DNA of 43,982 nucleotides from a virus. Made by a program: the position numbers and the translations under genes. The notes under the pieces were generated by a model that did no database searches, had not been told where the DNA came from, and was given only the letters and a program-made list of their open reading frames with translations. The stretch lies in the UHGV virus genome UHGV-0179801; one strand, 5' to 3'. Positions 1 to 43,982 of the stretch are shown here, piece after piece (the stretch's first letter is position 1; each line of letters opens with the position of its first letter).

Positions 1-31
1 TCCACGAACTTAGAGACATCAAGCGCGAAAC

Positions 32-391
32 TCATTTTCTCACCTGAATAAAGTAGGCTACGACATCATCGTTAACCATCTTCTTCTCAATGGCTTCGAT
101 GGACCATTGCTCGCCGCCGAATTGCACCTTGTCTTCCATCTTCGGAACGACGCTGCAATCGGCTTTAACAATCATGTCGCCCGCCTGAATCGTCGTACCG
201 TTTACCAGTCCCGCGTTTACCGGAACCGGAACAGCCTTCAACGGCAGCACTTCATCGTCAGACCAGACGTACTCGCCGAGAACTTCATCCCACACTTTCG
301 AGCCAGCGCGAATCAGCGACACCGTGCTGCCGAATTTGGTCAGCAGGCGTGTACCAACACCTTGCATACGTTTACTGAAAGCTGTACCCAT
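32..391 (-). CDS. neck/structural protein, hypothetical (119 aa)
   Basis: Track ORF 32..445; in-frame ATG at 391 overlaps the stop of the upstream gene (TAATG coupling); last gene of the leftward late operon at the window edge. Confidence 0.45.
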   Translation of the reverse strand: MGTAFSKRMQGVGTRLLTKFGSTVSLIRAGSKVWDEVLGEYVWSDDEVLPLKAVPVPVNAGLVNGTTIQAGDMIVKADCSVVPKMEDKVQFGGEQWSIEAIEKKMVNDDVVAYFIQVRK

Positions 392-1005
392 TACGCGGCC
401 TCCAGTCTCGAAATAACCAGTAGCGCGGAAGGCGCGGCGCCCCATGCGGTTACGGTAGCGGCTTGCGGGTATACACCACCGAAGTTGCTTCCGGCGCTAT
501 CTCGCATAATCTGAACGGCAAACGTCTGGCCTGCGGTTGGGTTAATAACGACGCGAGACTCAATCGGGATTGTAATATCCGCGCTCACCAGTTTCGTGGC
601 GGCGGGCGAGCCGTACTGAGTACCGTTTACTAAAATACGTGATAGCAAGATTGATGTGCCACTTGCCCCTGTGCGACCCGCTTGTAACTTGATGCGAACG
701 GCGTAGTTACCCGCAGTGTTGAACGTAACCATACCCGCTGCATTAATCATTACCGGGTCAGATGCACTCCCCTGAGCGGAGCCGAAAGTTAACTGCAATG
801 CTGTGTCCGTCGCGGTTGGCGCTTGTATTACAGTGGACGCGGCGCGAAGAACTTCAACCTCTTTTACCCCAGGAGTGGCGTAAATAGGCGAGTCGGCCAT
901 CTGCGTCATTACCTCGCGTAACTTCGCGGGTGTGATAAGCCCGGTCGTGTTATCAGGGAGGTTCGCACCGATAAGGGTAAACATCTCTGTTTTAGTCTTC
1001 GCCAT
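391..1005 (-). CDS. structural protein, hypothetical (204 aa)
   Basis: Track ORF; tightly packed in the leftward late operon downstream of capsid genes; function assigned by position only. Confidence 0.5.
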   Translation of the reverse strand: MAKTKTEMFTLIGANLPDNTTGLITPAKLREVMTQMADSPIYATPGVKEVEVLRAASTVIQAPTATDTALQLTFGSAQGSASDPVMINAAGMVTFNTAGNYAVRIKLQAGRTGASGTSILLSRILVNGTQYGSPAATKLVSADITIPIESRVVINPTAGQTFAVQIMRDSAGSNFGGVYPQAATVTAWGAAPSALLVISRLEAA

Positions 1006-1007
1006 TT

Positions 1008-1520
1008 TTAACCCCGGTACACGTTAAACGAGAAACCATTGTTAAGACCGCCGCACAGTAACGGGCGTAAGGCGTCGTCTGCGGCTGTAATAGCAGTTGT
1101 TGCTCCACTGCTGCCGTTGTTGAAGTAGGTAACGGTCACTGCACCCTCGACACGCTCGGTCTGCACGGAACGCCCATCAGTGTTAGCGCGAACATCAGTT
1201 CCAGCACCATATGTAGCGGCGGCGATTACCTGCGCAAGAATCACCTGTTTCGGGATGACATTGTTCGATACTGGGAAGCCATTCAACGTTACGCCGGCGC
1301 GTGGGTAAGCGAGAGACTGTTCAGCGGATACGCGACGACCGCACATCTGCGGTTCTGCAAGCCCGACATAAGTAGCACCGTTGCGCAGAGCTACTTCCGC
1401 GGCGGTATCGTCTTCTGGCAACTCCAGGCCATAATTAGCCGCTAACGCGCGGGCGTCAGCCAGACTAATGTAACTGTCGGCATTCGGTACGATTTCCCCT
1501 GTCTCCACGATTAGCGGCAT
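1008..1520 (-). CDS. head-tail connector region protein, hypothetical (170 aa)
   Basis: Track ORF; 2-nt spacing to the next gene; position between capsid and tail genes. Confidence 0.5.
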   Translation of the reverse strand: MPLIVETGEIVPNADSYISLADARALAANYGLELPEDDTAAEVALRNGATYVGLAEPQMCGRRVSAEQSLAYPRAGVTLNGFPVSNNVIPKQVILAQVIAAATYGAGTDVRANTDGRSVQTERVEGAVTVTYFNNGSSGATTAITAADDALRPLLCGGLNNGFSFNVYRG

Positions 1521-1523
1521 AAA

Positions 1524-1703
1524 TTATTCCTCTGACTTACGGCGACGACGCTTAGTACCGCCACCGTTGTTGTGCGCTTCTTCGTTGTCCGGTTGTGTTG
1601 CAACCAGTTCTTCCGCTTCTACCGCACCGCGAACAGGCATCACCTGACCGTCAACAACATCAACGTGGGTGTACTTTTCGCGGATTACATAATTATCTGC
1701 CAT
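1524..1703 (-). CDS. small protein (59 aa), basic C-terminus
   Basis: Not in track (<60 aa). ATG at 1703 preceded by AAGGAAAGG; ends GGAGGAATAA just before the ATG of the next gene at 1520. Confidence 0.4.
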   Translation of the reverse strand: MADNYVIREKYTHVDVVDGQVMPVRGAVEAEELVATQPDNEEAHNNGGGTKRRRRKSEE

Positions 1704-1739
1704 GACCTTTCCTTATTACGGCCCCGAAGGGCCGTTGTA

Positions 1740-2081
1740 TTAAGATACAGTTGCTACGGTGCTGCTGGAGATAATATTACCATACACATCGTGAACAACC
1801 ACTTTATACGTGCCTGAATCGGCGGTAGTGGTAGACGCTTTAGCATAGGTAGCTGCGGTAGCTCCGTCGATGGCGTTGTTGTTCTTATACCACTGGTAAG
1901 AATATGGCTCCAGACCGCCAGTTGCGACCACGGTCAGCGTCATAGTTTCACCTGCGGTTACCGAGGTAGTAGCGTTAAGCGGGGTAGAAAAAGACGCAGG
2001 TGAAATAGTCGCCATGTCAATCTTAGCACCTACGGTGTCCGCAGAGACGCCAGTGATGCGTCGTTTCAATACGTCTGCCAT
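1740..2081 (-). CDS. Ig-like domain protein (possible capsid decoration)
   Basis: Track ORF; AAGAGGA RBS; Ig-like signature (PYSYQWYKNN ... DSGTYKVVVHD); immediately downstream of the major capsid gene. Confidence 0.5.
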   Translation of the reverse strand: MADVLKRRITGVSADTVGAKIDMATISPASFSTPLNATTSVTAGETMTLTVVATGGLEPYSYQWYKNNNAIDGATAATYAKASTTTADSGTYKVVVHDVYGNIISSSTVATVS

Positions 2082-2142
2082 TGGGGAATCCTCTTAGTAA
2101 ATGAAAAGAGGGACCGAAGTCCCTCTCGATTATAGCTTAACC

Positions 2143-3192
2143 TTAAGACCCGACACCAGTTACCAGGAAGGCAATCGGTACATGCTTACGTTCAACAACA
2201 CGGTTCCAGTTAGAGGCGTTCGCCAGGTCCTGCCAGGAAGCGGAGCGCGGGGTAGTCTCGGTGCCGTTGCCAGTGATTACTGCGCTGGTGAAGCTGTAGC
2301 CAAACGGATGCAGCAACCAGGTCTTACGGGTCCACAGGGTTTCAACGCCGCCGCCATTGCCGCGGGACTCTTCACGCTCATAGGCCAGCGGATTGGTTGG
2401 GTTGCCTTCACCATAACCGATAGCGCCGTTGCCGAAGATGATGGAGATGAACTTACGGCTAGGGCCAGTACCGACTACGGTCATGCTGTCGTCAACAATC
2501 ACGCGGTAGCCCTGGTAGGTGGCGAACAGGGTGTCGTTGTCAGCGTTTTTGATGAAGTCGATAAGCTGCTGCTTACGGGCCTGCGCGTATACGAAGCTGT
2601 GCATAGCGATAGTGCCCAGCACTTCACCACCGTTGCCCATCAGCGCGTCACCCATAGTCTGGGTAGCGTCGATGAACGCGCCTGCGTCGAAGCCCAGAGT
2701 AGAGGACACGTCGATTACCATGTCGTTCTGCTCGTGATATGCGTCGGTGGCGGCTACGTTGTCATTGTACAGACCGAGCGCGGTGGCGATCAGACGGCGT
2801 TGTGCCTGGCGCTGCCAGAAGTTATCCAGGCGGGATGCTACGGATTGCAGCGGGTTCTGGCTGGTCAGTTCTACCGTCAAATCCGCCTGACCAAAGCCTT
2901 CGTTCAGGTACGCAACGCGGGCCATCATCTCACCGGTCTGCACATTACGCGGGGTAGCGATGTCCTGGTATACGTCGTTCGAGTAGTTCGGCTCGATAGA
3001 GGTATCAATCGCTTTCCAGAAAGGAATATTAGCGATGTTGGACGGGCCGCGGGCAATCTCGGCAGCGTACGGAGTCGGAGTCAGAATACCGGACTGGAAG
3101 AACGCGGTTTTTTCTACCGGGTCCTCGGTCATATAAGATGCCAGGACCGGGATGTTGCCAGTTACGATATCGCCGATAGTGGTAATTGCCAT
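2143..3192 (-). CDS. major capsid protein
   Basis: 349-aa ORF directly after the scaffold gene; AGGAA RBS; size and position typical of an HK97-fold capsid protein. Confidence 0.7.
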   Translation of the reverse strand: MAITTIGDIVTGNIPVLASYMTEDPVEKTAFFQSGILTPTPYAAEIARGPSNIANIPFWKAIDTSIEPNYSNDVYQDIATPRNVQTGEMMARVAYLNEGFGQADLTVELTSQNPLQSVASRLDNFWQRQAQRRLIATALGLYNDNVAATDAYHEQNDMVIDVSSTLGFDAGAFIDATQTMGDALMGNGGEVLGTIAMHSFVYAQARKQQLIDFIKNADNDTLFATYQGYRVIVDDSMTVVGTGPSRKFISIIFGNGAIGYGEGNPTNPLAYEREESRGNGGGVETLWTRKTWLLHPFGYSFTSAVITGNGTETTPRSASWQDLANASNWNRVVERKHVPIAFLVTGVGS

Positions 3193-3194
3193 TA

Positions 3195-3896
3195 TTATTT
3201 CCTCAGGGCTTTAAGTTGCCGTTCAAATTCGGCAGGGTTCGATTTATACAGAGCTAAACGCTCCGCTTCACTCATGTCTTTAAACGCTGGTGCGGCCCCG
3301 CCGCCTTTGCTACCGGAAGCCCCGCCGCCGGAAGCTGCATTTGCTTTAATCAAATGCGAAAACGCTTTGTGTTCACGCAGATATTTGCGGAACTGTTCCG
3401 GGTCAGTCGTGATTACGTTACCGTCTGCGCTGACAAACTTAGTAACCACATCATCGCCTTCGAACTCAGTCTTAACGAACGGTGCAAGGATGTCCACTGC
3501 TTCCGGGGTGATAAAGTCACCTGCGAAAGAGCCTAACACCGCTTTACGTTCGCTACCGAGAATGCGCTCTGCCATTCTGGAGATGCGGCCATCTTTCTCG
3601 GCTAACACCGGGTCATACTGGCTACGAATCGTCTTTTCGAACTCGTCCATCTTACCAGCGGCTTTTAACGCCTCCTGGTGGGCACGCTGCCGTTCTTCTT
3701 CGGCCTCTTTTGCTTTACGAGCGGCTTCTTTCTTCTCCGCAAGTAATGCTTCCTGATTAGCCTTAAGCCCGGCAACTTCTTTCTCAATCAGCGCCTGAAC
3801 TTCTTCAGCGGTGAACATTTTCGGTGCGTCACCGCCGCCAGATTTATCTTCTGCTCCAGCTTCTTCCTGGAACGGATAACGTAAAAAACGATTCAT
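3195..3896 (-). CDS. scaffolding protein
   Basis: Ala/Glu/Lys-rich predicted coiled coil (EALLAEKKEAARKAKEAEEERQRAHQEALKAAGK) just upstream of the capsid gene. Start uncertain: ATG at 3896 chosen; track start 3950 is a TTG. Confidence 0.6.
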   Translation of the reverse strand: MNRFLRYPFQEEAGAEDKSGGGDAPKMFTAEEVQALIEKEVAGLKANQEALLAEKKEAARKAKEAEEERQRAHQEALKAAGKMDEFEKTIRSQYDPVLAEKDGRISRMAERILGSERKAVLGSFAGDFITPEAVDILAPFVKTEFEGDDVVTKFVSADGNVITTDPEQFRKYLREHKAFSHLIKANAASGGGASGSKGGGAAPAFKDMSEAERLALYKSNPAEFERQLKALRK

Positions 3897-3978
3897 AGTC
3901 AGTATGTCCCCTGGACGTTGGAATCCGGGCCACCCGGATTTACATGTCAAGAATAAATTATTCCAACATGCAAGGCAA

Positions 3979-4242
3979 CTATTCCAGAATATTCCTCACA
4001 TAATCCTGCAACATGAACACTTTCAGTCTCAGTTGCCGTGCACATTCGGCATTCTGAACGTCGATAGCTAAATCCTCGTCCGCGTCGCTACTTGGCGGCG
4101 CCAGTTTGCACGGCGGCTGCATCATCGTCATATCCGGGGATGGAATTAGCGTTTGCGACGGCGCGGGACTTGAGCAGGACGCGAGCATCGTCGAAAGTGC
4201 ACACGCTGCGGCCAGGCGTTTTAATGTACTTAACGACTTCAC
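3979..4242 (-). CDS. o-spanin (Rz1-like outer-membrane lipoprotein)
   Basis: Signal peptide with lipobox LASC then a Pro-rich mature region; begins in the +1 frame inside the Rz-like gene and extends past its stop (overlapped spanin architecture). Confidence 0.55.
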   Translation of the reverse strand: MKSLSTLKRLAAACALSTMLASCSSPAPSQTLIPSPDMTMMQPPCKLAPPSSDADEDLAIDVQNAECARQLRLKVFMLQDYVRNILE

Positions 4243-4474
4243 GGGTAATCACCTCTGATTTCGTCTTGCCTTCGTTGTCAGCGGCTGCGGCCTTTGATTC
4301 ATCCTGCTGCTGCCGTTGTGTTTTCTTTGCTAACTCGGTCTGTGCTTTCTGCTGTTGCTGCGAAACGAGATTCGCCCGGCCTTCGTTCCAGCCGCTGCGA
4401 TATTGGTAGATGCCGTGGGCGTAAGACAGGATGATGAAACATGCTCCTGCTACGACAGTTGCTTTAAGATTCAT
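4088..4474 (-). CDS. i-spanin (Rz-like)
   Basis: N-terminal TM helix (ATVVAGACFIILSYAHGIY) followed by a charged Gln/Lys/Glu-rich periplasmic coiled-coil region; AAAGGAGAAAC RBS; contains the embedded lipoprotein ORF. Confidence 0.55.
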   Translation of the reverse strand: MNLKATVVAGACFIILSYAHGIYQYRSGWNEGRANLVSQQQQKAQTELAKKTQRQQQDESKAAAADNEGKTKSEVITREVVKYIKTPGRSVCTFDDARVLLKSRAVANANSIPGYDDDAAAVQTGAAK

Positions 4475-4793
4475 GTTTCTCCTTTCTCGATAAGTAAAGC
4501 CCCGCCATAAAGCGGGGCGCTAGTCCTTATCATTTAAACATAGAAACGGCGTAATCTCAGTAAACCAGTTACTTTTTACACAAGCAATAGATTATGGCCC
4601 TTCCGAACGCGTCAGCGTAACTACACTCAGGACTTACGTCCCGCTCCGTTACCTGCCCGCGCCGCGGTCGCTTGTTCATACTTCACAAGCTCAGGTGGAG
4701 CTTAGCACATTTTTAGTGAAAAGTCAACTATTCGAATAGTTTATTCCAAGATTTACAATTCGGTGGAATAACTGGGATACCTAACCAAATAGT

Positions 4794-4822
4794 TTGCACA
4801 CACCAATATAATAGGGTACTAT
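4794..4822 (+). promoter_or_regulatory. sigma70-like promoter TTGCAC-N17-TACTAT with AATAG-N4-CTATT inverted repeat
   Basis: Conserved 25-nt block caccaatataatagggtactattca (4801-4825), near-identical at 6608 and 40231, followed by the conserved leader tcgaaacgaggaga and an ATG. Confidence 0.55.
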
Positions 4823-4850
4823 TCATTACATCGAAACGAGGAGATGAAAA

Positions 4851-5024
4851 ATGTTCAAAGAAAAAGACATAATGCACGAAAACGGCAAATACTGGGTTCT
4901 AAATGATAAAGGAGTGTACTGCGTAATGATTTCCGGGTTTACCCACGCTAAAGCTGATAGTGCATACGCTAGTTTAGATTTAGCGATAGCCCGCTGTGAT
5001 TATCTGGCGAGTAGAGACGCATAA
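4851..5024 (+). CDS. small moron protein (57 aa), hypothetical
   Basis: ATG 4851 after the conserved promoter/leader (gaggagatgaaaaATG); opposite strand to the flanking late genes; followed by a terminator hairpin. Confidence 0.5.
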   Translation: MFKEKDIMHENGKYWVLNDKGVYCVMISGFTHAKADSAYASLDLAIARCDYLASRDA

Positions 5025-5027
5025 ACT

Positions 5028-5050
5028 AAGGCCCCGTAATGGGGCCTTTT
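5028..5050 (+). terminator. rho-independent terminator (AAGGCCCC-gtaat-GGGGCCTT-TT)
   Basis: Perfect 8-bp GC-rich stem, 5-nt loop, T-run; member of a conserved hairpin family recurring at 7183, 30767 and 42010. Confidence 0.6.
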
Positions 5051-5051
5051 A

Positions 5052-5510
5052 TCAATCTGGCTTAGTGACCTTCGCCGCCTTGCTTACCACCTCAACTCCA
5101 TCGGTATCAGTAACTTTAACGAAGTATTCGCCAGCTGCGTTAACCGACAGAGACAAAGCCTGTTCTGGTGCGTTAACCACTTCCTTACCGTCCTTGTACC
5201 AGGTCAGAGTATACGGCGCTTTACCCGCTTTAACTTCGACAGTGATAGTTGCGCTGCCGTCTGCCAGTTCGGCGTCCTGCGGTTGCACAGAGAAATACAC
5301 ATCGCCAGCATCAGCCAGATACGGAATCTCATAAAGCATACCCGCCGCCGGCAGCGCAATACCGGTTTTATCTGCAAACGGCATATCGTCTACGGGCGTA
5401 CCGAGTACACTTTCATCTTCAATAAATACCACGTTCTCGCCGGAGCCAGACACGCGGGCGTACTGGACTACGCGACGCGCGGGTACATCAGTTACTTTGA
5501 AAAAGCCCAT
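5052..5510 (-). CDS. Ig-like domain structural protein
   Basis: Track ORF; GGGGA RBS; C-terminal Ig-like signature (APYTLTWYKDGKEV ... GEYFVKVTD); downstream of the head morphogenesis gene. Confidence 0.5.
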   Translation of the reverse strand: MGFFKVTDVPARRVVQYARVSGSGENVVFIEDESVLGTPVDDMPFADKTGIALPAAGMLYEIPYLADAGDVYFSVQPQDAELADGSATITVEVKAGKAPYTLTWYKDGKEVVNAPEQALSLSVNAAGEYFVKVTDTDGVEVVSKAAKVTKPD

Positions 5511-5512
5511 CG

Positions 5513-6556
5513 TTATTCCCCTTTCAGATAATCAGCAACACGTTTATCGAGTTCCGCCATCTGCTTAAGCGTCAGCGGATTCCCGAAACCATCTACAGAT
5601 ATTACGCGAAACTCTTCCGGTGATATACCGCTGTTACGGAAAATCTTACCGCGTGTCGGCCCGAGTGCTTCATCCTGAAACCATGCCGGTTGTTGTTTCA
5701 GGAACTCGTAATAGGTTGTGTCCGCGCTTACCTGAGTTCCTCCGTCTGCACCCTTAGCCGCACGTTTTGCGCCTTTATCGAGGAAGTCGAACTCCGAGCT
5801 AATTACCGGAGCCGTGCACGACCGGCAGTTCGGATGGGCGGGGGGCATCGGCCCTTTACCAATTTCCCACGTCATCCCGTCTCTGGCTCTGCAAATCGTA
5901 CTTGTACGGCTGTCGAGGGTGGATACCCACTCGTACTTCTCGATGATGTCGTCGTTCTGACGGTACGTCTCGTTACGTGCTTCGTTGGACACGTGGGACA
6001 GCGCGGTGCGTATTACAGTAGCCGCATTGCGCTCAGAGACATCGGCCAGGCCACCCGCGCCAACAACATTCTTAACAATCTGCCGTGTGGTTTGGCCTTG
6101 TACAAATCCCATCTTAACGCCCGTTACCAGGCGCGCGACCTCCGCTTCGCCCCAGCCATCCATCAGCTTGGTGAAATCGACAGGCTTGTCACTTAGTGAC
6201 AGAGGTTGAAACTCGGCAGCGGCCCACACCTGCTCAGCGGTAGGAGTAATAAATTCTGCGTTAACATTGGTCGTCAGTGTTTTTACGTTCCACTCAGCCT
6301 CATATGCCGCCAGTTCCTTAAGGTCTTCTGTCAGCTTTGTTTGCCAGTCACCTGTAAGGCCTGCCAGTGCTTCTTCGAGGTCGCGTAACAGTTTATTCAG
6401 TCTGGCGGTGCTGCGACCGTCGTCGCCGAATAACAGCACCTGCCGTTTTATTTCGTCACGCATCTCCTGAATGAACGGTGTGAGGTCTTTCACCTCGCCG
6501 GATGCGGTGCGTTGCAGCCATATCTGGTGGCTGATTAAGGATGTAAGTAAGCTCAT
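5513..6556 (-). CDS. head morphogenesis / minor capsid protein (Mu F-like, SPP1 gp7-like)
   Basis: Motif STLDSRTSTICRARDG typical of the Mu-F/gp7 family; located after the portal gene; ATG 6556 with GGAGGG RBS preferred over the track start 6613. Confidence 0.65.
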   Translation of the reverse strand: MSLLTSLISHQIWLQRTASGEVKDLTPFIQEMRDEIKRQVLLFGDDGRSTARLNKLLRDLEEALAGLTGDWQTKLTEDLKELAAYEAEWNVKTLTTNVNAEFITPTAEQVWAAAEFQPLSLSDKPVDFTKLMDGWGEAEVARLVTGVKMGFVQGQTTRQIVKNVVGAGGLADVSERNAATVIRTALSHVSNEARNETYRQNDDIIEKYEWVSTLDSRTSTICRARDGMTWEIGKGPMPPAHPNCRSCTAPVISSEFDFLDKGAKRAAKGADGGTQVSADTTYYEFLKQQPAWFQDEALGPTRGKIFRNSGISPEEFRVISVDGFGNPLTLKQMAELDKRVADYLKGE

Positions 6557-6600
6557 ATGCCCTCCTGTAGTATCGACAGTGTAACGCATAAAAATAATAT

Positions 6601-6629
6601 TTGCAGACACCAATATAATAGGGTACTAT
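6601..6629 (+). promoter_or_regulatory. sigma70-like promoter TTGCAG-N17-TACTAT (conserved family)
   Basis: Same 25-nt block as at 4801 and 40231, followed by the conserved leader tcgaaacgaggagatgagaaATG. Confidence 0.55.
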
Positions 6630-6656
6630 TCAGTTATCGAAACGAGGAGATGAGAA

Positions 6657-7178
6657 ATGGTTACTACAGTAATTACTTTCCCTGCGTATGTAGGGGCGAA
6701 AATCTGCAGGGCGAAAAATGATGTGCGCTATTATTTGAACGCTTTTTACATAGACCCTGAAGGATTGATAGTTTCTACGGATGGTCACAGATTGTTCTGC
6801 GACAACGTGAAGACAAACGTCGAAACTGGAGTTCTAATAGACATCAAAGGGAGGGAGCCTTCTAAATTTAACTACGCGGAGGTAGACCACGACAACGGTA
6901 GTGTTTCTTTCTATGACGATAGTAGTGCGCTTGTATGTACACTTCCTATTGAAGTTGTAGACGGGAGATTTCCTTACTGGAGACGTGTGGCCGGCATTAC
7001 GCCGGGTTCAGTCGATAGCATAGGGTTCTCTCTGCGCTATTTGGCGGACGCGTACAAGATTTCTAAGGCATACAAAAATGAAATTGCCCGTTTCGATTTC
7101 CAGGACCAAACAAACGGATGCAAAATATCATTTTCAAACACTGCATTTATGGTGCTAATGCCAGCGCGATTTAAATAA
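6657..7178 (+). CDS. truncated DnaN-like (beta sliding clamp) protein, 173 aa
   Basis: Matches to recalled E. coli DnaN: NDVRYYLN (DnaN DVRYYLNG), STDGHRL (ATDGHRLA), VVDGRFPYWRRV (LVDGRFPDYRRV), SIGFSLRYLAD (EIGFNVSYVLD), C-terminal AFMVLMPARFK (AYVVMPMRL). Roughly half DnaN length; own promoter and terminator. Confidence 0.7.
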   Translation: MVTTVITFPAYVGAKICRAKNDVRYYLNAFYIDPEGLIVSTDGHRLFCDNVKTNVETGVLIDIKGREPSKFNYAEVDHDNGSVSFYDDSSALVCTLPIEVVDGRFPYWRRVAGITPGSVDSIGFSLRYLADAYKISKAYKNEIARFDFQDQTNGCKISFSNTAFMVLMPARFK

Positions 7179-7182
7179 AACT

Positions 7183-8679: not shown

Positions 8680-8691
8680 TGAATAATCCTC

Positions 8692-10580: not shown

Positions 10581-10585
10581 GTTGG

Positions 10586-36421: not shown

Positions 36422-36918
36422 TGCATCGGGTCCCAAATTCGAGGAAACGTTGATTGCGCAGTTCCGTAGGCTTTAAGGAGGCACCCCAGCACATCACCAT
36501 AGCAACCATACAAATCTGGCAGATTGTTAACAAGGCACTGATTATCTTCGTCCTGAAACGGCGATTTCTCGGCGGTTGCCGTGAAAGTAATCGTCCAGTT
36601 AATACCGTCTTCGGTGGCCTCGGCGATGGTGGATGTGATCGTTACCTGATAGTCCTCAATACCCATGCCGAAGTCGTGCGCCATCCAGAAACTTGACGCA
36701 CCGCCATCGACTTTCTCAAGGAACGACAGGAACGCCTGCCGCCCTAGTGCAGATGTAATCAGGGTTACGCTTATCGGAAACACGTCGTAATATGTGTCAC
36801 GGCCCTGACGCACCCCGCCACCGGCTAAATCGACACTCCAGACGTTGTTACGTCTGGTCATTGAGTAGCCTTTTGACACCACCGGCTTAAGGCTACGTGG
36901 AAAGTATAAGTCAGTCAT
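36418..36918 (-). CDS. minor tail protein (lambda M-like / distal tail)
   Basis: ATG overlaps the tape measure stop (TAATG); assigned by gene order. Confidence 0.5.
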   Translation of the reverse strand: MTDLYFPRSLKPVVSKGYSMTRRNNVWSVDLAGGGVRQGRDTYYDVFPISVTLITSALGRQAFLSFLEKVDGGASSFWMAHDFGMGIEDYQVTITSTIAEATEDGINWTITFTATAEKSPFQDEDNQCLVNNLPDLYGCYGDVLGCLLKAYGTAQSTFPRIWDPMQ

Positions 36919-39341
36919 TATTTAAACCCCGGCGCGTTTCTTGTGGCCTTGCGGGCCTTGCTAATCTTACTGTTGCTGTTCTGCAAAGACGCAGCCACTT
37001 GCTCTTCGATGATGATACGCAGACGTCCTTCGTCATCTTGTTCAGTAGACACATTGCCAATCTGACTCGATGTGTTATTTACGATGGTAACATTAGATGG
37101 GCCACTATTTCCGCTATTATTGCCGTTTAACTGCTGCCGTGTTTGGCTTGCGTTTACCGCGCGCCCCGCCCCCGCCATCTTGATAATCTCTGGGCCGCGC
37201 TCACCGACAAGATAGCTGCCGCCAGCGTTCATTTGCCCGCCCTGTTCGCGGAATCCGGTTAAGGCTAACGCTTGGGTACTCGCAACCGTTGATGTGATGC
37301 CCGCCATCGCCGGTGCGCTGTTTGTCCCTAGGGTAGCCAGGGACGCCATAGCTGCAGCGGGGGCATACGCTGCAGCAATCGCCGCTCCGGTAGCCGATGC
37401 TGTCGCGATGGACGCCGCGGATGCCGTTTGGCCTGTAATCATGTTTTTCAGGTACTCCACCCCCATCTGTGTTAGCCCTGAAACGACCGATGACAGGATT
37501 GCGTTGCCGAGGTTTGCCATTGCTTCGCTAGCGGTCTGAGTACCATTAATAAGTCCGACTATGGAGCTGGACGCGGAAGCACCCACAGCGTCCAGGGAGT
37601 CCATAAGCATATTGTTCCACTCGGATTGGTTGCGGAAACGCTCCTCGGCAGCGGCAGCCAGCCCATCGTTATATTGCTTGTCCAGTTCCGCCCGTGCCTG
37701 CAACGCGACTTCATGCACGGAGTTTTCTTGTGCCTCGTACTCCTCTATAACCGCAAGCCTTTTCTGCCGCTCGAGCTGTAAGTTAGCGATAGGGTCTATT
37801 GACGCCAGAACCGCCACACCTTGTTGCAGTTTTTTCTGTTCCTCGGCTAACTCTTTATCAATAGCGTCTTGTCGTTTTTGCCCGTATTGAAGAACTATTG
37901 CTGTTTTCGCCTTTTCGTATTCTTCAGCAGTTAGCGCCCCTTCTTTTCGGTATTTAGCGGCCTCCTTAAGTTTCTGCTGTTCCTGCGCGTTAATAGCCTT
38001 TAACTCATCGTTGTTCTGACGAGCCAAAGTGTCGAGATAATCTTGCGCCTGTTTACGCAATTGCTCCGCTTTCTTAGCGGCGGCTTTCGCGTCTTTGTCG
38101 TTGGTGTTTCCTGTCCCACCAGTCCCGCCCTTTTTATTAACAAGGCTGGCCAAGTCAATTTCTTGCTTCCTGCGCTCGTCGTACTGCTTGCGCTGCTCCT
38201 CAATTTCTTTCTTGCGCTGCTTAGACCTGTTGGTAATGGCCTGTGATTCGGCCTCTGCACGTTTTATGCTAGCGTCATACGCGGCGTCAGCCTCTGCGGT
38301 CAGGTTTTTAAATGTGAGCGCTGCCGTTTTGCTCGGGTCAAACACGTCGGCAAGGGTCTGGCCAAGCGCTACGGCGTAATCGTCAATGCGCTGGAACCAC
38401 GCAATAACCTCGTGGAATGTCTGCTGAATGTCAGGCAACCATTCACGGATAGCATCTGGAATAGTCCCCAGCGAGTCTGACATATCCGCGGATTTGTCCT
38501 CGGTATCGAATGCCAGGTCATTCAGGGCATCAGAAATAAACTTGAACGACTCATTGAACAGCGTCACCCAATCCTGGAGCGTGGCTGCTATCTCATTAGA
38601 CACTATAGCGTCGGTGAGCGCCGTTACTGCGTCTTCTGCCAACGCAGCTTGTTCGCCTACGGCGTCGCCAAAACCAGACTGCGCTACCGCAAGAACAAGG
38701 CCGTCGAAGGAGTCGGCGAGGCTCGACAACTGACCATCTAATGTCTTCGAGCGCGTCTCCATCGCCCCGGCGAAATCGGTGTTGCCGATGTTTAACAGAT
38801 ATTTCTGAATCTCTTCGGAGTTCTTTTTAACCGTGGTGGTAACGCCGCGGAACGTGAACGACACTGTATCCGCCTGTTGCGACGACTTGATGCCAAACTC
38901 TTTTAGTCGCTCAAACTCAAAGGTACTGGCGTCGGCAACTGCCTCAATCATCTGATTAAGGTCTTTACCCATAGCCGCCGCGGTGTTGCCGTAGGAGATT
39001 AATGCCTCTTTGCTGGGGTTCAGGCCCAGAGCCACCAGCTTAGTAAAGCCTTCCACCGCCTGATTAAGCCCGTATGGTGTTTCTTTTGCGAACTGTTGCA
39101 GGACGCTGAAAGCCTTAGCGGCATTCTCAGCGCTCCCGGTCATCGTGATGAGGCCAGAGTTCAGCTTATCGAAGTTTCGCTGGGATGCCACCAGCGCACT
39201 GAACACCTGCTTGGCGGTTTCCAGGCTGACAACGGCAGCGGCGGCCGCCCCCGCCGCCTTAGTAAGCCCGTTCAGTTGGGATGTGGTTTTATCGACGCCG
39301 GTCGATGATACTCGTACTATCAAGCTAGCGGTATCAGCCAT
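36918..39341 (-). CDS. tail tape measure protein
   Basis: 807 aa with long Gln/Lys/Glu/Ala-rich predicted coiled coils (KQRKKEIEEQRKQYDERRKQEIDLASL...) and Gly/Ala-rich C-terminal region; follows the chaperone pair. ATG 39341 preferred over track start 39356 (TTG). Confidence 0.8.
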   Translation of the reverse strand: MADTASLIVRVSSTGVDKTTSQLNGLTKAAGAAAAAVVSLETAKQVFSALVASQRNFDKLNSGLITMTGSAENAAKAFSVLQQFAKETPYGLNQAVEGFTKLVALGLNPSKEALISYGNTAAAMGKDLNQMIEAVADASTFEFERLKEFGIKSSQQADTVSFTFRGVTTTVKKNSEEIQKYLLNIGNTDFAGAMETRSKTLDGQLSSLADSFDGLVLAVAQSGFGDAVGEQAALAEDAVTALTDAIVSNEIAATLQDWVTLFNESFKFISDALNDLAFDTEDKSADMSDSLGTIPDAIREWLPDIQQTFHEVIAWFQRIDDYAVALGQTLADVFDPSKTAALTFKNLTAEADAAYDASIKRAEAESQAITNRSKQRKKEIEEQRKQYDERRKQEIDLASLVNKKGGTGGTGNTNDKDAKAAAKKAEQLRKQAQDYLDTLARQNNDELKAINAQEQQKLKEAAKYRKEGALTAEEYEKAKTAIVLQYGQKRQDAIDKELAEEQKKLQQGVAVLASIDPIANLQLERQKRLAVIEEYEAQENSVHEVALQARAELDKQYNDGLAAAAEERFRNQSEWNNMLMDSLDAVGASASSSIVGLINGTQTASEAMANLGNAILSSVVSGLTQMGVEYLKNMITGQTASAASIATASATGAAIAAAYAPAAAMASLATLGTNSAPAMAGITSTVASTQALALTGFREQGGQMNAGGSYLVGERGPEIIKMAGAGRAVNASQTRQQLNGNNSGNSGPSNVTIVNNTSSQIGNVSTEQDDEGRLRIIIEEQVAASLQNSNSKISKARKATRNAPGFK

Positions 39342-39666
39342 GATTTCTACCTTCAAAGATTGCTTCTAAGCCCATGATAATGTCTATCTCGAACAGGCTA
39401 AGCTGTTTTTGCGTAACATCGAGATAGGCTTTCAGGTCTTGCCACGTAACGGATTCTCTTGCAAACAATACTACAGCGTCCTCGCGCACGTGTCGCGTAA
39501 ACTTAATGTCACAGTACGTCTCAAAGGTGGATATAAAAAGGGGCGGGCATTCTAGCCCACCCCGTCGCGCTGCACGTTTTTTCTTATCGATTACACCCAT
39601 CGCGATAAGCGCCTGTTCGTGTCCGTCAGCTATAGAATCAAACTCTCTGATTTTATGCTTGTCCAC
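39334..39666 (-). CDS. tail assembly chaperone, T-like frame (likely made as a G-T fusion)
   Basis: ORF in the -1 frame relative to the upstream chaperone; its frame stays open back to 39723, overlapping the last 8 codons of the G-like gene. Confidence 0.45.
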   Translation of the reverse strand: MDKHKIREFDSIADGHEQALIAMGVIDKKKRAARRGGLECPPLFISTFETYCDIKFTRHVREDAVVLFARESVTWQDLKAYLDVTQKQLSLFEIDIIMGLEAIFEGRNHG

Positions 39667-39698
39667 AAACTCATAGGTGGCGAACCTGTACAGCGCGT

Positions 39699-40115
39699 CT
39701 ACTTTTCCTGTAATGCTTTGCGCTCAGCGTTATGGAACGCAGCTACCTGGGTTCCAAGCCCTTTGAACTGGTCCAGCAATTTGTTAAATGCTTCTTTAGA
39801 GAAAGGCTCATCAAAACTCCAGCCGTTTACTACTTCTGCCGCGAGTTGTCGGTTGAGATCTTCCGCCAGTTCGTTAACCGCCAGGTTATATTCAGTATAG
39901 TCGCCGGATTTTTTGGCGGCTTTTTCCAGTTCTTCGAAACGCGCCAGCCCGCGGCGGTACGCGATAATGAAAGCACGCCCGGCTTTAACGGCGGCATCCG
40001 CATCCGGATTTACAACGTTAAGCCACTCCCCTGAGTCTTCACCATTTGGTAGGAGAATGGGCATCTTCTTGCCTACCAGTGCTTTCTCTTCGAAATAAAA
40101 ATCAGAAAGTTTCAT
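39699..40115 (-). CDS. tail assembly chaperone (lambda G-like)
   Basis: 138-aa acidic protein between the major tail gene region and the tape measure gene; AAAGGA RBS. Confidence 0.55.
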   Translation of the reverse strand: MKLSDFYFEEKALVGKKMPILLPNGEDSGEWLNVVNPDADAAVKAGRAFIIAYRRGLARFEELEKAAKKSGDYTEYNLAVNELAEDLNRQLAAEVVNGWSFDEPFSKEAFNKLLDQFKGLGTQVAAFHNAERKALQEK

Positions 40116-40222
40116 TCTTTGATCCTTTGGTTAAGAGGTTACAGGTTAAGGGAAATGCGCCAGACGGGAACCACCCGCTTTTCGTGTGCGACACTAGGCG
40201 CAAACTTATTCTAGCACACTAC

Positions 40223-40251
40223 TTGCACACCCCAATATAATAGGGTACTAT
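40223..40251 (+). promoter_or_regulatory. sigma70-like promoter TTGCAC-N17-TACTAT (conserved family)
   Basis: acttgcacaccccaatataatagggtactattca, the same block as at 4794 and 6601. Confidence 0.55.
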
Positions 40252-40281
40252 TCACTTACACCAACAATGGAGGAGTTTAAA

Positions 40282-40473
40282 ATGTCAAGTTTACCAGTTT
40301 CCTTAATTCTGTTTGCACTACTCGCTTATTTTGCGCCTTTCCTGGTTGCATATTTCCGCAACCATAAAGCGAAGTTAGCGATATTCATGGCTAACCTGTT
40401 TCTTGGCTGGATTCTGCTGCCGTGGGTATTTATTTTAATCTGGGCTTGCAACTCGAATGTCAAAGAGAAGTGA
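40282..40473 (+). CDS. small membrane protein (63 aa)
   Basis: ATG 40282 after GGAGGAG RBS; two hydrophobic helices (LPVSLILFALLAYFAPFLVAYF, LFLGWILLPWVFILIWA). Confidence 0.5.
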   Translation: MSSLPVSLILFALLAYFAPFLVAYFRNHKAKLAIFMANLFLGWILLPWVFILIWACNSNVKEK

Positions 40474-40510
40474 GCTAGTATAGGACAAATCCTAAGCACG
40501 AGGAATAAGC

Positions 40511-41641
40511 ATGGCCAGGAAGAAAATAACCGACGAACAGTTGCAGGAAGAATTGAACGCCGGTATGAAGAATATCGACATCGCTCGTAAATACGGCATC
40601 TCAGACCGCGTTATTCGCATCCGTAAAGCGAAGCTGGCAAAGAAAGGCGTAGGTCATGGGCGCGACGTTAGCCACCTTGTGCCAGATGGCTACAAGATTA
40701 AAGGAACGTCGTCACTTGTCGATGAGTTCGGCAACACTAAATTGCAATGGGTTAAGACCGACACCGATGCTGAACGTCAGGTTGAACTGATGAAAGCCGT
40801 GGTTGAAGGTATGAAGTCAGAGATTACCCCGGTTGCGCCTGTTAAAGCGACTCGAGCCAAACGTGACGATAAACTGCTCAATCTTTACACTGTGTCTGAT
40901 TTCCATCTCGGTATGCTTGCATGGGCCGACGAGAGTGGCGACGACTGGGACATGAAGATTGCAGAAGACCTGTTCTCTCGCTGGTTCGACGCAGCGTTTC
41001 AGAAAGCGCCGGACGCAGGAACGGGCGTTATTAACCTGCTTGGTGACCTTGCGCACTTCGATAGTCTGGATGCCGTTACGCCGGCAAGCGGTCATGTTCT
41101 TGACGCAGACACGCGCTATCAGAAACTGGTCCGCTACATGATTCGTATGGTCCGCCGTGTCGTTGATATGGCCCTTGTTAAGCATAAAAATGTTCGCTTG
41201 CTTATTGTGCAAGGGAACCACGACGAGAGTGGCATGATTTGGCTGGCTGAGATGTTCAGTACGCTATACGACAACGAGCCGCGTGTGTTCGTCGATACGT
41301 CACCGGATGTTTACAAGATGGCGCGACACGGCAAAACAACGTTGTTCTTTCACCATGGACATAAAGCACGCTTCGACGCTATCGAGCCGGTTATGATTGC
41401 CAAGTTCCGCAAAGCGTTCGGCGAGAGTGTTTACAGCTACGCTCACGTAGGGCACCTGCACCATCAGAAGATTGTAGAAAGCCGTAACATGATTGTTGAG
41501 CAGCACCGCACTTTAGCGGCTAAAGATGCCTACGCCTCCCGCGGCGGATGGATGTCAGGCCGTAGTGCAAACGTAATTACTTATAGCGCCGAATATGGCG
41601 AGGTCGCGCGTTTAACTATTTCACCGGAGATGCTGGGATGA
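40511..41641 (+). CDS. HTH domain fused to calcineurin-like metallophosphoesterase
   Basis: N-terminal HTH-like NIDIARKYGISDRVIRIRKAK; phosphoesterase motifs VSDFHLG, GDLAHFD, GNHDE, HHGH, GHLHH. Confidence 0.65.
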   Translation: MARKKITDEQLQEELNAGMKNIDIARKYGISDRVIRIRKAKLAKKGVGHGRDVSHLVPDGYKIKGTSSLVDEFGNTKLQWVKTDTDAERQVELMKAVVEGMKSEITPVAPVKATRAKRDDKLLNLYTVSDFHLGMLAWADESGDDWDMKIAEDLFSRWFDAAFQKAPDAGTGVINLLGDLAHFDSLDAVTPASGHVLDADTRYQKLVRYMIRMVRRVVDMALVKHKNVRLLIVQGNHDESGMIWLAEMFSTLYDNEPRVFVDTSPDVYKMARHGKTTLFFHHGHKARFDAIEPVMIAKFRKAFGESVYSYAHVGHLHHQKIVESRNMIVEQHRTLAAKDAYASRGGWMSGRSANVITYSAEYGEVARLTISPEMLG

Positions 41642-41868
41642 CTTCAAAATACAACCGCACAATGACAAACACTCACGGTAGCACTATGACAGTAGATGTT
41701 TACGATGTGCTACGTGCCTTCGACATCCGCGACCCGGCGTTGCAACACGCATTGAAGAAACTATTGTGCATGGGCTTGCGGGGGCACAAGGACACCGGAA
41801 CAGACTTAGCGGAAGCAATTGAAAGTCTGGAGAAGTTACGGGAATATCGAAGCAATATTGACGAATAA
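41638..41868 (+). CDS. hypothetical protein (76 aa)
   Basis: Track ORF, ATGA-coupled to the phosphoesterase gene. Confidence 0.45.
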   Translation: MTSKYNRTMTNTHGSTMTVDVYDVLRAFDIRDPALQHALKKLLCMGLRGHKDTGTDLAEAIESLEKLREYRSNIDE

Positions 41869-41882
41869 CTACTAGGTATTTT

Positions 41883-42005
41883 ATGAAACTAATTATTAAC
41901 TTCTTTAAAGCCTTAACAGGTAACGATTTTGAGATCGACGGAGGTTGGCTAGTGTATGACCCTACTTTTGATACTTGGTTGTGGCATAAAGAGAAACCTC
42001 GATGA
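41883..42005 (+). CDS. small hypothetical protein (40 aa)
   Basis: Not in track; ATG 41883; ends just before the terminator. Confidence 0.3.
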   Translation: MKLIINFFKALTGNDFEIDGGWLVYDPTFDTWLWHKEKPR

Positions 42006-42009
42006 GAAA

Positions 42010-42036
42010 AAGGCCCCTTTCGGGGCCTTAGTTTTA
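42010..42036. terminator. bidirectional rho-independent terminator (AAGGCCCC-tttc-GGGGCCTT)
   Basis: 8-bp stem with T-tracts on both strands, between the rightward cassette and the convergent major tail gene. Confidence 0.6.
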
Positions 42037-43203
42037 TGCGTAGGTGATGCGCTGGATAACAATAGACGACTGATATTGGTTGCCGGTAGCCTGGCCTTCG
42101 ATGGACTGAGTGATTGACTCTGGTCCGCCAATCTCAGGCGTAACCGCCGTAAGCTCTGCGCGTTTCAAACTGAAAGACATAACCCCGTTTACCCCCGCCA
42201 GAATAGAGTTAATCTCTACCTGCTGTTCATTGATAAACTTCTGAATCATCGCCATGTCGTACAGCTTGCCGGAGATGGAGAAGGTGTTAGCCGCGCGACC
42301 ACGTTCCACGAACGCAACGCTACTGTTCCCTAGTTCAAACTGAGCGGATGCGCCGTTGTCGTTGGTGATGGTCAGAGTATCGCAACGCAACGGCGTAGAA
42401 CCGTCGAACACGGACACATCTACAGAAGAGAACGGCTCGTCAGTGAACGTCACCTGGGAGAAATCAGAGCCAGACGGCGGCGCGGTAAGAATCTCCTGAC
42501 TCAGACCGATGAATGGGAAGCTCCCCGTTACCATCGCGTTAACAGCCTGCTCGATAGTAAAACCGGAGATTTCCACGCCTTTGGTCAACATGTACGCGTC
42601 CGGGTTCCCGCACTGACCTTTGAACCATGTCAGGATGGAGAAAGTCTTACATGCATTACCGGTTTCCAGTTTGTCACCGGTTTTTCCATCGGTCTCAATA
42701 GGGCCTTCGGCGGTAAGGGTGTGCTGAATGCCGGCGCCAGTAACCACAGTAGCTGTTACGGCAGTAACGATGAACGGCTTAGAGTTATCGCCAGTTAAAG
42801 CGTCAAAATACAGAAGGTCCCCGACCTCTACACCGTCAGTAATGAAACTGCCAGTGTTGCGGGTGAAAGTTTTTGCTACCGGGTCTACCGTAATACCAAC
42901 AGCGGATAAGGTTACCCCATCCTGCCACGTAGATGTCATCGCACCAGCAAGGAAATCATCCTGACTACGGGAGCTAAGCTCAATGGCATACTCCCCGCTA
43001 ACCTGTTTGTTACCGGTGCGGATAGATGTAGTTTCACGGCTGCCGTCCAGTTCGTTGGAAGTCAGCGCATCGCGGGTTACAGCGGGAACACCGCCGGTGT
43101 TACGCAACGGCGACCATACCGGGTTACTTGGTGTTACGCCAGGGGTCACTTCCGCCACATAGAATTGCGCGGTATTCGCGCCCTTAAAAGGAGTTGTAGC
43201 CAT
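42034..43203 (-). CDS. major tail protein
   Basis: 389 aa; AAGAGG RBS before ATG 43203; first large gene of the tail block after the neck genes, followed by a strong terminator. Confidence 0.6.
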   Translation of the reverse strand: MATTPFKGANTAQFYVAEVTPGVTPSNPVWSPLRNTGGVPAVTRDALTSNELDGSRETTSIRTGNKQVSGEYAIELSSRSQDDFLAGAMTSTWQDGVTLSAVGITVDPVAKTFTRNTGSFITDGVEVGDLLYFDALTGDNSKPFIVTAVTATVVTGAGIQHTLTAEGPIETDGKTGDKLETGNACKTFSILTWFKGQCGNPDAYMLTKGVEISGFTIEQAVNAMVTGSFPFIGLSQEILTAPPSGSDFSQVTFTDEPFSSVDVSVFDGSTPLRCDTLTITNDNGASAQFELGNSSVAFVERGRAANTFSISGKLYDMAMIQKFINEQQVEINSILAGVNGVMSFSLKRAELTAVTPEIGGPESITQSIEGQATGNQYQSSIVIQRITYA

Positions 43204-43205
43204 AT

Positions 43206-43622
43206 TCACAGCCTCTTGGTGAATGCAATAAAGTTAATTGACAATGGTCGTTTGGCCCATCCGTTTTCTACAATCAGCGGCCCCAGGCTAACCGATTGAA
43301 CCTCGGCGCAGATGTCGTTACGTGAAAATGACTTACCTGCTTTAAACGCCGTGTTAAGTAAGTCTGCCATTTTATTGATTGGCGCGCTACCTTTCACCGA
43401 TGCATAGTTAATGTCGACCTGATAAATACCGGAGCGTTGTTCCGTGAAGAACAAATCCGCCTGTTCCGTATCCGCAAGTAGCATGTAACTAGCCAGATAC
43501 GGCGTATCGGTTGACGTCGGCGCGTCGATGTTTTCAAGTGCTACCTTGATGCCGTTGGCGGTTCCGAAGGCTACCAGCGGCACATCAAACGCTTTTGTTA
43601 AGTCCTCAAAGTAGCCCATCAT
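43206..43622 (-). CDS. tail terminator / tail completion protein (putative)
   Basis: 138 aa immediately upstream of the major tail gene; assigned by gene order. Confidence 0.4.
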   Translation of the reverse strand: MMGYFEDLTKAFDVPLVAFGTANGIKVALENIDAPTSTDTPYLASYMLLADTEQADLFFTEQRSGIYQVDINYASVKGSAPINKMADLLNTAFKAGKSFSRNDICAEVQSVSLGPLIVENGWAKRPLSINFIAFTKRL

Positions 43623-43954
43623 TTCACCTTGTTGGCTTCTTCGTTAATGAGTTGCTGGAAGCGGGACACATTTATCCTGACCATGCCTTGTGGGGCCTGT
43701 TTCGACCAATGGCCGTACTCCAACCGTTGCGCATACGGCAGGTTGTTTGTCAGCGTGAACTCGTGCCAGTCTGCTGCTTTCAGTACGAAACTCGTAGCGT
43801 TTCCGATAGCTATGTTTCCTGATTTATCCGTAGCGTCCGTAATCCCGGGGGCAGGAATGCCACCAGACGCCATCCAGTTCATACGAAAGCGGCCCGTATC
43901 TACCGGACTCGCCTTTATGATAGCGGAAAACAGCTTGATAGACACCTGACGCAT
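43619..43954 (-). CDS. head-tail joining protein (HK97 gp10-like, putative)
   Basis: 111 aa, ATGA-coupled, upstream of the tail terminator-like gene; GAGAAGG RBS. Confidence 0.4.
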   Translation of the reverse strand: MRQVSIKLFSAIIKASPVDTGRFRMNWMASGGIPAPGITDATDKSGNIAIGNATSFVLKAADWHEFTLTNNLPYAQRLEYGHWSKQAPQGMVRINVSRFQQLINEEANKVK

Positions 43955-43982
43955 AACCTTCTCAGGGTTCTTCTTCGCCTTT

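Follow-up and report, generated by a model that had tools for sequence, protein, structure and literature searches.

A complete, circular Kagunavirus genome assembly most likely opened inside a conserved neck gene

Introduction

A phage genome recovered as a linear record raises the question of whether the record is complete and whether its two ends reflect termini of the virion DNA or only the point at which an assembler opened a circle. The window analyzed here (the whole stretch of DNA, 43,982 bp) had been read in a first-pass annotation as an entire genome, circular or permuted, that was linearised inside the late operon, and this view is borne out by the adjacency of its ends in related phages, by a 55-nt duplicate in its source contig, and by contigs that cross the join. 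With a probability of about 0.88, we consider the window to be the complete, non-redundant genome of a virulent Kagunavirus siphovirus (Guernseyvirinae, K1G-like) in the form of a closed circle, headful packaging being the inferred part of this reading. The phage infects E. coli and belongs to the virulent genus Kagunavirus. The cut point of the circular assembly is arbitrary and lies inside a small neck/tail gene of the late structural operon; such an opening is an ordinary outcome of assembly rather than a biological feature, and the ends of the window are without biological meaning.

Results

The ends of the window are neighboring bases

In alignments, window positions 43982 and 1 correspond to neighboring bases in both XY1 (14388/14389) and K1G (10356/10355), with no gap or overlap. 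A 963-nt artificial join of the end to the start was present as one contiguous place in 339 of 362 phage records, and the exact 40-nt join was found within seven IMG/VR contigs. Joining the two ends thus restores an uninterrupted, conserved sequence.

The public SPAdes contig NODE_184_length_44037 (ENA ERZ1034969) consists of the window plus 55 nt at its end, being identical to the window over 43,193 checked bases (all but the 789 nt at contig positions 31245-32033). Its bases 43983..44037 match window 1-55 letter for letter; this is the circular overlap of a SPAdes assembly at k=55, so that the raw contig carries the same sequence of assembler k-mer size at both ends. Additional genes beyond either edge of the window in the source contig had been named beforehand as the observation that would overturn completeness; what lies beyond the right edge is this 55-nt copy, with no new gene. 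The earlier statement that no terminal repeat is visible between the first and last 50 nt also holds over longer stretches, as prefix and suffix were compared without an exact repeat emerging at any length from 6 to 200 nt, and no direct k-mer of at least 10 nt recurred between the outermost 1000 nt at either end. The window lacks a terminal repeat because the 55-nt duplicate had already been trimmed.

These features are those of a circular SPAdes contig, which starts at an arbitrary node of the circle with the 55-nt k-mer duplicated at its ends, removal of the duplicate then giving the window. K-mer duplication of this kind at SPAdes contig ends has been described for permuted Salmonella phage genomes (PMC9409062). 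An identical k-mer at both contig ends is in use as a direct-terminal-repeat mark for the completeness of viral genomes; the source contig bears this signature, whereas trimming has hidden it in the window and left the gene at the join looking cut.

Further assemblies of the same phage provide additional support, with the join crossed at 100% identity and zero mismatches in Logan contig SRR7658664_2951 (44,011 nt, beginning at window 27734) and in MEGAHIT contig k119_53881 (3,729 nt); these join-crossing assemblies are independent assembler runs, whose samples may be shared (same sequencing project or run). A second SPAdes contig, scaffold_206 of ENA ERZ28621425, is likewise 44,037 nt long and starts near window 24149, as judged from 6.3 kb sampled. 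SRR7658664_2951 and scaffold_206 were both opened away from the join, which speaks against the ends of the window being true physical termini.

A conserved neck gene is divided by the cut

The first-pass annotation correctly placed both ends on the minus strand of the late genes, next to a neck gene (32..391), identified here as encoding a head-completion protein (Hc1), and an HK97 gp10-like gene, which ends at 43619. It erred in describing the ends as short non-coding flanks in an intergenic spacer, as positions 1..31 and 43955..43982 are both coding and belong to one minus-strand frame. A gene of 132 codons straddles the join, with its start codon at 35..33, running off position 1 and continuing in frame from 43982 to 43619, and the cut divides codon 12 (GA|A). 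From the ATG, the minus-strand frame reads MSFALDVSKFVE|KAKKNPEKV-MRQV..., uninterrupted across the join. The minus-strand gene previously bounded at 43954 therefore keeps its HK97 gp10-like identity but not its start, which is the internal Met22 of the longer gene.

The joined 132-aa protein matched phrog_17193 over residues 1-132 (E=1e-82) and PHROG 169 (E=9e-56), both annotated as "tail completion or Neck1", and it is safely a member of these two families. Its match to Pfam PF04883 (HK97-gp10_like; residues 4-102, E=9.5e-4) scored 20.5 bits, below the gathering cutoff of 21.4. In tblastn searches, 1,609 phage records matched the protein in a single piece that spanned 80% or more of it, with residues 1-132 covered among the Guernseyvirinae matches listed and residues 1-131 covered at 32% identity in a Serratia phage. 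Intact 131-aa orthologues are present as XY1 gp17, EC3-1 gp36, and Sciku gp17, and the gene call on the Logan contig also gives a 132-aa gene across the join (L012 10971-11369).

The surrounding genes are tightly packed, with overlaps of 1-4 nt near the join; the head-completion gene ends in a TGA stop (34..32) that forms an ATGA overlap with the start codon of the straddling gene. In the stretch scanned for terminator-like hairpins, strong candidates (8-9 bp stems) occurred only after the capsid and tube genes; the remaining matches were weak and no commoner than in shuffled sequence.

Partial expression of the head-completion gene and the straddling gene as one neck fusion of ~251 aa seems very doubtful. 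It would require ribosomes to slip by -1 where the two genes overlap at A_AAA_TGA (41..30 on the minus strand of the window), and the K1G record does annotate such a slip, as the two-piece CDS ORF14A/14B. The motif is kept in nearly all Kagunavirus loci examined, one relative carrying CGC AAA TGA in its place, and it looks exactly like simple translational coupling as well. More distant homologues keep neither the overlap nor the frame relation, and a check of more than 30 loci and four more distant phages yielded no support for the fusion outside the genus.

Gene content and relation to Kagunavirus

The genes around the rest of the circle (Table 1) agree with the earlier observation that every module of a tailed phage is present once, as each of the 30+ core XY1 proteins had exactly one matching place in the window. 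This single-copy core, together with a length that falls within the 40.8-45.8 kb of relatives, is what is expected of a complete genome. The packaging block also matched phrog_3064 and phrog_145.

Table 1. Features of the 43,982-bp window, with coordinates and strand
Feature	Coordinates	Strand	Remarks
k-mer duplicate segment	1..55	+	repeated at 3' end of NODE_184 (43983..44037), trimmed from window
Straddling tail-completion/HK97 gp10-like gene, 5' piece	1..35	-	start codon, codons 2-11, two bases of codon 12
Head-completion gene, 119 aa (Hc1/SPP1 gp16-like)	32..391	-	phrog_161 E=5e-32; phrog_17193 positions 1-119; Sciku annotation
204-aa neck protein	391..1005	-	
Ad1 adaptor	1008..1520	-	
59-aa head-tail joining protein	1524..1703	-	
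Ig-like decoration protein	1740..2081	-	
Major capsid protein	2143..3192	-	
Scaffold	3195..3896	-	head and neck genes together, 391..3896
Spanins	3979..4474		
Ig-like protein	5052..5510	-	packaging/head morphogenesis block, 5052..10462
Mu F-like head morphogenesis protein	5513..6556	-	Pfam Phage_Mu_F
Portal	7207..8679	-	Pfam DUF4055
TerL	8692..9963	-	Pfam Terminase_6N/6C
TerS	9953..10462	-	86% identical to Sciku TerS
Lysis cassette: endolysin and two holins	13619..14676	-	PF00959 Phage_lysozyme
Early/replication module	18518..30762	+	HTH protein, helicase-primase, PD-(D/E)XK exonuclease (DUF2800), Enc34-type ssDNA-binding protein, family A DNA polymerase, resolvase-like protein, C5 DNA methylase, SNF2 helicase
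Tail module	30796..40115	-	includes 827-aa tail protein, minor tail proteins
Tailspike	30796..32985	-	
Tape measure	36918..39341	-	
Tail assembly chaperones	39334..40115	-	
Tail tube	42034..43203	-	Pfam Phage_tube_2 E=3e-37
Tail terminator	43206..43619	-	Pfam Phage_tail_terminator_5 E=9e-14; directly downstream of straddling gene
Straddling gene, 3' piece	43619..43982	-	last base of codon 12 through stop codon

In keeping with a virulent lifestyle, no integrase or recombinase family was found among the Pfam labels precomputed for the public gene calls; these labels span the window except for ~31.2-32.0 kb inside the tailspike gene; the tailspike was scanned separately. A 376-aa plus-strand ORF (40511..41641) considered as an integrase was rejected, being a metallophosphoesterase/SbcD-like exonuclease, and a 551-aa ORF (2101..3756) on the strand opposite the capsid and scaffold genes had no Pfam match and was taken as a shadow ORF. 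tRNA and Rfam scans of the window were empty. An exact look-up of the tail-terminator protein returned other phages only (563 blocks), this protein being too conserved, while the tube, TerS, neck, and helicase-primase proteins are specific enough for such a look-up.

Escherichia phage K1G and other Kagunavirus genomes (vB_EcoS_XY1 and K1ind2/3 among them), several of which were deposited as circular records, have their gene order around the whole circle in common with the window, which is circularly collinear with XY1 and K1G. Also held in common are the neck gene string (Ad1, neck protein, Hc1, gp10-like, terminator, tube), the TerL type (99% identity to XY1 for the window TerL), a genome size of 41-46 kb, and a lack of lysogeny genes. 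Collinear gene order and core proteins are shared with K1G, as expected of a Kagunavirus. Nucleotide identity to relatives in the genus was ~89-90% over ~71-80% of the sequence compared; identity multiplied by coverage gives roughly 0.64-0.72, to be set against a genus demarcation of ~70% as an approximation rather than a VIRIDIC-type calculation. On these sequence comparisons, the phage is probably a different species from K1G and XY1. It differs from them in lacking the polynucleotide kinase and ATP-binding genes, which both adjoin the tube gene in K1G and XY1, and its tailspike matches the XY1 endosialidase only over the first 46 residues.

Discussion

Other accounts of the window ends and of its completeness were weighed against this evidence. 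That the ends are true linear physical termini, or that the opening fell in a non-coding spacer, would fit a window that itself lacks a terminal repeat and has short flanks with no listed ORF, but the flanks appear empty because ORFs running off an end go unlisted. The conserved gene is broken in mid-codon, whereas hundreds of relatives and other assemblies of the same phage carry it whole over the join; the source contig carries the k=55 duplicate, and two further full-length contigs were opened at other points. The adjacency of the ends in relatives, the join-crossing contigs, and the 55-nt duplicate refute this account, to which we give practically no credence. Equally negligible is the prospect that the window is part of a larger replicon (a chromosomal prophage, phage-plasmid, or concatemer) or an incomplete genome, which is raised by nothing more than the a priori possibility that attaches to any window. 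Against it stand the lack of an integrase or recombinase family in the Pfam labels (with the ~31.2-32.0 kb within the tailspike gene outside those labels), the lack of host genes, one copy per core gene, a size as in relatives, a source contig that ends in self-overlap instead of new sequence, and the virulence of the genus.

For a complete and closed genome, the mode of packaging is a separate matter, as cos and DTR genomes also assemble into circular graphs if a metagenome contains their replicative or ligated forms. Judging from experiments on relatives, headful (pac) packaging most likely yields linear virion DNA with terminal redundancy and circular permutation. The terminase would then begin on concatemers at a pac site, for which P22-type phages suggest the TerS gene or its vicinity, and headful cutting would follow; reads of many such permuted molecules would then tile a circle. 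For Kenyan Jerseyvirus phages (type MT1, studied on K47), headful packaging was concluded from PhageTerm, an EcoRV map that looked circular, and a broad band in PFGE (PMC10783031). The TerL proteins of Jerseyvirus share 84-89% identity with that of the window, including the TerL of Kenya-K62 (88.7%), which belongs to the same Kenyan collection as judged by its record name. Within Kagunavirus or Kagunavirus-like phages, Sciku, Snoke, Schulenberg, and Shashou were typed as headful/pac by PhageTerm, and no termini were seen for fBC-Eco01. The window phage shares with the headful paradigm (P22/SPP1/P1; Jerseyvirus K47) a circular assembly without fixed ends and a TerS type annotated P22 gp3-like, this annotation being that of the Sciku record; it differs in being known from assembled sequence, whereas headful packaging in the Jerseyvirus collection was supported experimentally.

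In a cos-type alternative, 3' cohesive ends (HK97-like) would be fixed close to the terminase genes, and the circle would come from cos-annealed or replicative DNA. The genome would still be complete and closed, and we regard this alternative as unlikely; the literature consulted defines no cos sequence for the lineage. K1G-type TerL proteins have been grouped with headful terminases in the literature, in contrast to a study that, on a TerL tree alone, placed K1G-like TerL proteins including JSSK01 in the 3'-cos HK97 group (PMC11641727), and a circular assembly by itself cannot separate cos from pac. The packaging data on the Jerseyvirus collection, the four PhageTerm-typed phages with fBC-Eco01, and the Sciku TerS all argue against cos ends, although the TerL of Sciku is of a different type, with 55% identity to that of the window. 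A phmmer search with the window TerL as query returned nothing from the whole PDB at E<=0.01, which likewise speaks against the cos alternative; with no close similarity to any solved terminase, structures give no basis for assigning a packaging class. A literature search for "Jersey-like" phages with "headful" packaging gave no match, and PMC9784834 holds nothing on packaging.

The value of reading the window as a closed circle is mainly practical and carries no new biological principle. The record can be used as a complete genome, provided that its ends are not taken as termini, and annotation pipelines applied to the linear form will lose or truncate a conserved gene of the neck if the record is not first rotated, for instance so that it begins with the small terminase gene. 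The phage, whose tailspike is different, would seem to be a Kagunavirus species not yet described, and as such it is of modest interest for host-range or phage-therapy catalogues.

Identity and gene content

With both halves of the window as megablast queries, several hundred Guernseyvirinae records were matched, the top matches being Escherichia phages of the genus Kagunavirus (XY1, K1G, K1ind2/3 and phage 26), with identities of ~89-90% at 71-82% query coverage. Alignment to the full XY1 and K1G records (blastn) yielded a single continuous, circularly collinear map, with gaps only in known variable regions: the small early genes, the tailspike, part of the tape measure and the accessory block adjoining the tube gene. 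When all 76 annotated XY1 genes were translated and searched against the window, each core gene had exactly one place, in agreement with the first-pass annotation that every module is present once. These comprise packaging, head and neck genes (small and large terminase, TerS and TerL, portal, Mu F-like protein, scaffold, capsid, decoration, adaptor and neck genes), tail genes (terminator, tube, chaperones, tape measure and distal tail proteins), lysis genes (holins, endolysin and spanins) and replication genes (helicase-primase, exonuclease, ssDNA-binding protein, DNA polymerase, resolvase and helicase). No integrase family occurs among the Pfam labels of the public gene calls, and the phage is of the virulent type. 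Scans of the window for tRNAs and Rfam families found none. The phage seems to represent an as yet undescribed species of this well-known genus, and its sequence is already deposited in public archives.

Coordinates of additional features in the window
Feature	Position	Strand
39-nt element	4791-4829	+
57-aa ORF	4851-5024	+
39-nt element	6598-6636	+
173-aa ORF, DNA pol III beta-clamp-like in Sciku annotation	6657-7178	+
39-nt element	40220-40258	+
Superinfection-immunity and exonuclease block	40282-42005	+
Hairpin	5023-5049	
Hairpin	7178-7212	
Hairpin	25161-25187	
Hairpin	30765-30796	
Hairpin	42008-42039	
TerL	8692-9963	
314-aa methylase frame	28267-29211	+
270-aa ORF	28355-29167	+
729-aa tailspike	30796-32985	-

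Each of the three copies of the 39-nt element TTTGCAnACACCAATATAATAGGGTACTATTCA lies upstream of a gene or cassette on the plus strand that is embedded in, and runs against, the late operon of the minus strand, and the element reads as a putative sigma-70 promoter (TTGCAx, 17 nt, TACTAT). The cassettes end in GGCCCC-stem hairpins, and the first two have their ribosome-binding site and start sequence in common. Two long ORFs in different frames overlap fully. A C5 cytosine DNA methylase is encoded by the 314-aa frame (PF00145, E=3e-16); the 270-aa frame has no Pfam match, is chosen by public gene calls in three of four contigs and is probably a shadow ORF. K1G likewise carries two overlapping ‘methyltransferase’ CDSs at this position. 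Only the first ~46 residues of the tailspike are shared with the K1 endosialidase of XY1, and its Tail_spike_N match is weak; receptor specificity is probably unlike that of the K1-capsule phages.

The window ends lie within one gene

Both ends had been described as short non-coding flanks of an intergenic spacer, but they lie inside one uninterrupted minus-strand frame. The stop codon of the head-completion gene Hc1 (32..391, minus strand; TGA, 34..32) overlaps an ATG at 35..33, from which the frame leaves the window at position 1, resumes at 43982 and continues unbroken to a stop at 43619. The resulting gp10-like gene is 399 nt long (132 codons) and is cut within codon 12 (GA/A); the ATG at 43954, previously taken as its start, encodes Met22. 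Across residues 1-132, PHROG 17193 (“tail completion or Neck1”) matches the joined protein with E=1e-82; the match to Pfam HK97-gp10_like begins at residue 4 and scores 20.5 bits, slightly below the 21.4 cutoff. In a tblastn search, one unbroken alignment spans 80% or more of the protein in 1,609 phage records, covering residues 1-132 in the Guernseyvirinae matches listed and 1-131 in a Serratia phage (32% identity). Residues 1-21, encoded by the two supposed flanks, are identical to the Sciku orthologue at 20 of 21 positions.

Strong terminator-like hairpins in late-gene orientation occur in the scanned stretch only after the capsid gene and after the tube gene, and between them Ad1, neck protein, Hc1, gp10-like, terminator and tube genes abut or overlap by 1-4 nt. 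The earlier placement of the opening inside the late operon therefore holds, with the cut being intragenic, in a translationally coupled gene string, rather than in a spacer.

In the K1G record (NC_027993 9965-10716), the Hc1-like and gp10-like genes are annotated as ORF14A/14B, a joined CDS in two pieces, which implies fusion by frameshifting. An identical overlap is present in the window (30-41, minus strand; GTG AGA AAA TGA / ATG). The motif is conserved in nearly all Kagunavirus loci examined, but one locus has CGC AAA TGA, and in more distant homologues the overlap or the frame relation is missing; translational coupling offers the simpler explanation. In one relative (ENA ERZ27258649 k141_54244, 9607-10000), a gene call is absent at the expected gp10-like position and the sequence past the Hc1 stop diverges from all other loci, so the tail-completion gene may be replaced or degraded there.

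Closure of the circle

Window positions 43982 and 1 align to the adjacent positions 14388 and 14389 of XY1 and 10356 and 10355 of K1G (blastn), with zero bases missing or duplicated. Of 362 phage records matching an artificial 963-nt join (the last 483 plus the first 480 nt), 339 contain it as one contiguous stretch, always in the record interior, and 7 IMG/VR contigs from related phages contain the exact 40-nt join internally.

Exact-protein look-ups recovered public contigs belonging to the phage itself. ENA ERZ1034969 NODE_184_length_44037_cov_11.7 starts at window position 1, is identical over all 43,193 bases retrieved, and carries the gp10-like gene whole at its right end (43619..44017). 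Past window 43982 it has 55 further bases that duplicate window 1-55 exactly, and 44,037 - 55 = 43,982; the window is therefore this SPAdes contig minus its k=55 circular overlap. The Logan contig SRR7658664_2951 (44,011 nt) starts at window 27734 and crosses the join, with 100% identity over 32034..43982 plus 1..20462, and MEGAHIT contig ERZ19661660 k119_53881 crosses it with 0 mismatches (43515..43982 plus 1..3261). SPAdes scaffold ERZ28621425 scaffold_206 is 44,037 nt long; the 6.3 kb sampled from it agrees with window 24762..31067 at every base, which places its start near 24149. At least three full-length contigs share the same unique length with different arbitrary opening points, as expected of a circular assembly graph, although these assemblies may share underlying reads. 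The first-pass proposal of an entire genome closing on itself is directly borne out, and the reported absence of a terminal repeat was confirmed in the window.

Position 27734, just upstream of the resolvase-like gene, is the exact start of both the Logan contig and an apparently unrelated MEGAHIT contig (ERZ19661660 k119_73777); this suggests an assembly-graph branch point, possibly from strain microdiversity. Locus L027, from the same MEGAHIT assembly, shows 2 mismatches to the window over 3.7 kb.

Packaging mode

Judging from relatives, the virion DNA is probably headful-packaged, permuted and terminally redundant (probability about 0.8), which would give a circular assembly. In a Kenyan collection of the sister genus Jerseyvirus, analysed on K47, PhageTerm called headful packaging, the EcoRV map was circular-looking and the PFGE band was broad (PMC10783031); the TerL of Kenya-K62 from this collection is 88.7% identical to that of the window, and Jerseyvirus TerLs are generally 84-89% identical. 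Permuted read mapping is reported in other Jerseyviruses, and among Kagunavirus or Kagunavirus-like phages PhageTerm assigned headful/pac to Sciku, Snoke, Schulenberg and Shashou and found no termini in fBC-Eco01. The K1G-type TerL also adjoins headful phages in a terminase tree, and the window TerS is 86% identical to that of Sciku, annotated by its depositors as P22 gp3-like.

Cos packaging is unlikely, its evidence being thinner than that for headful packaging: one paper placed the K1G-like TerL in the 3'-cos HK97 clade, from the tree alone (PMC11641727), and PhageTerm-typed Sciku has the second type of TerL, which shares only 55% identity with that of the window. Under headful or cos packaging alike, the window ends are assembler-made.

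Comparison of the window TerL with those of Sciku (MK931439 594-1844) and K1H distinguished two types in Kagunavirus, 423 aa (K1G/XY1/Jerseyvirus type) and 416 aa (K1H/Sciku type). Their identity of only 55%, against 97% for the adjacent portal and 86% for TerS, indicates that members of the genus have exchanged large terminase genes in a mosaic fashion.

The case is a textbook one: the phage population is permuted, or at least assembles as a circle, and its complete genome is reported from an arbitrary start, with one gene broken by linearisation. The genome is complete and its ends are not termini; the record is best rotated before annotation, as otherwise a 132-aa neck gene is lost.
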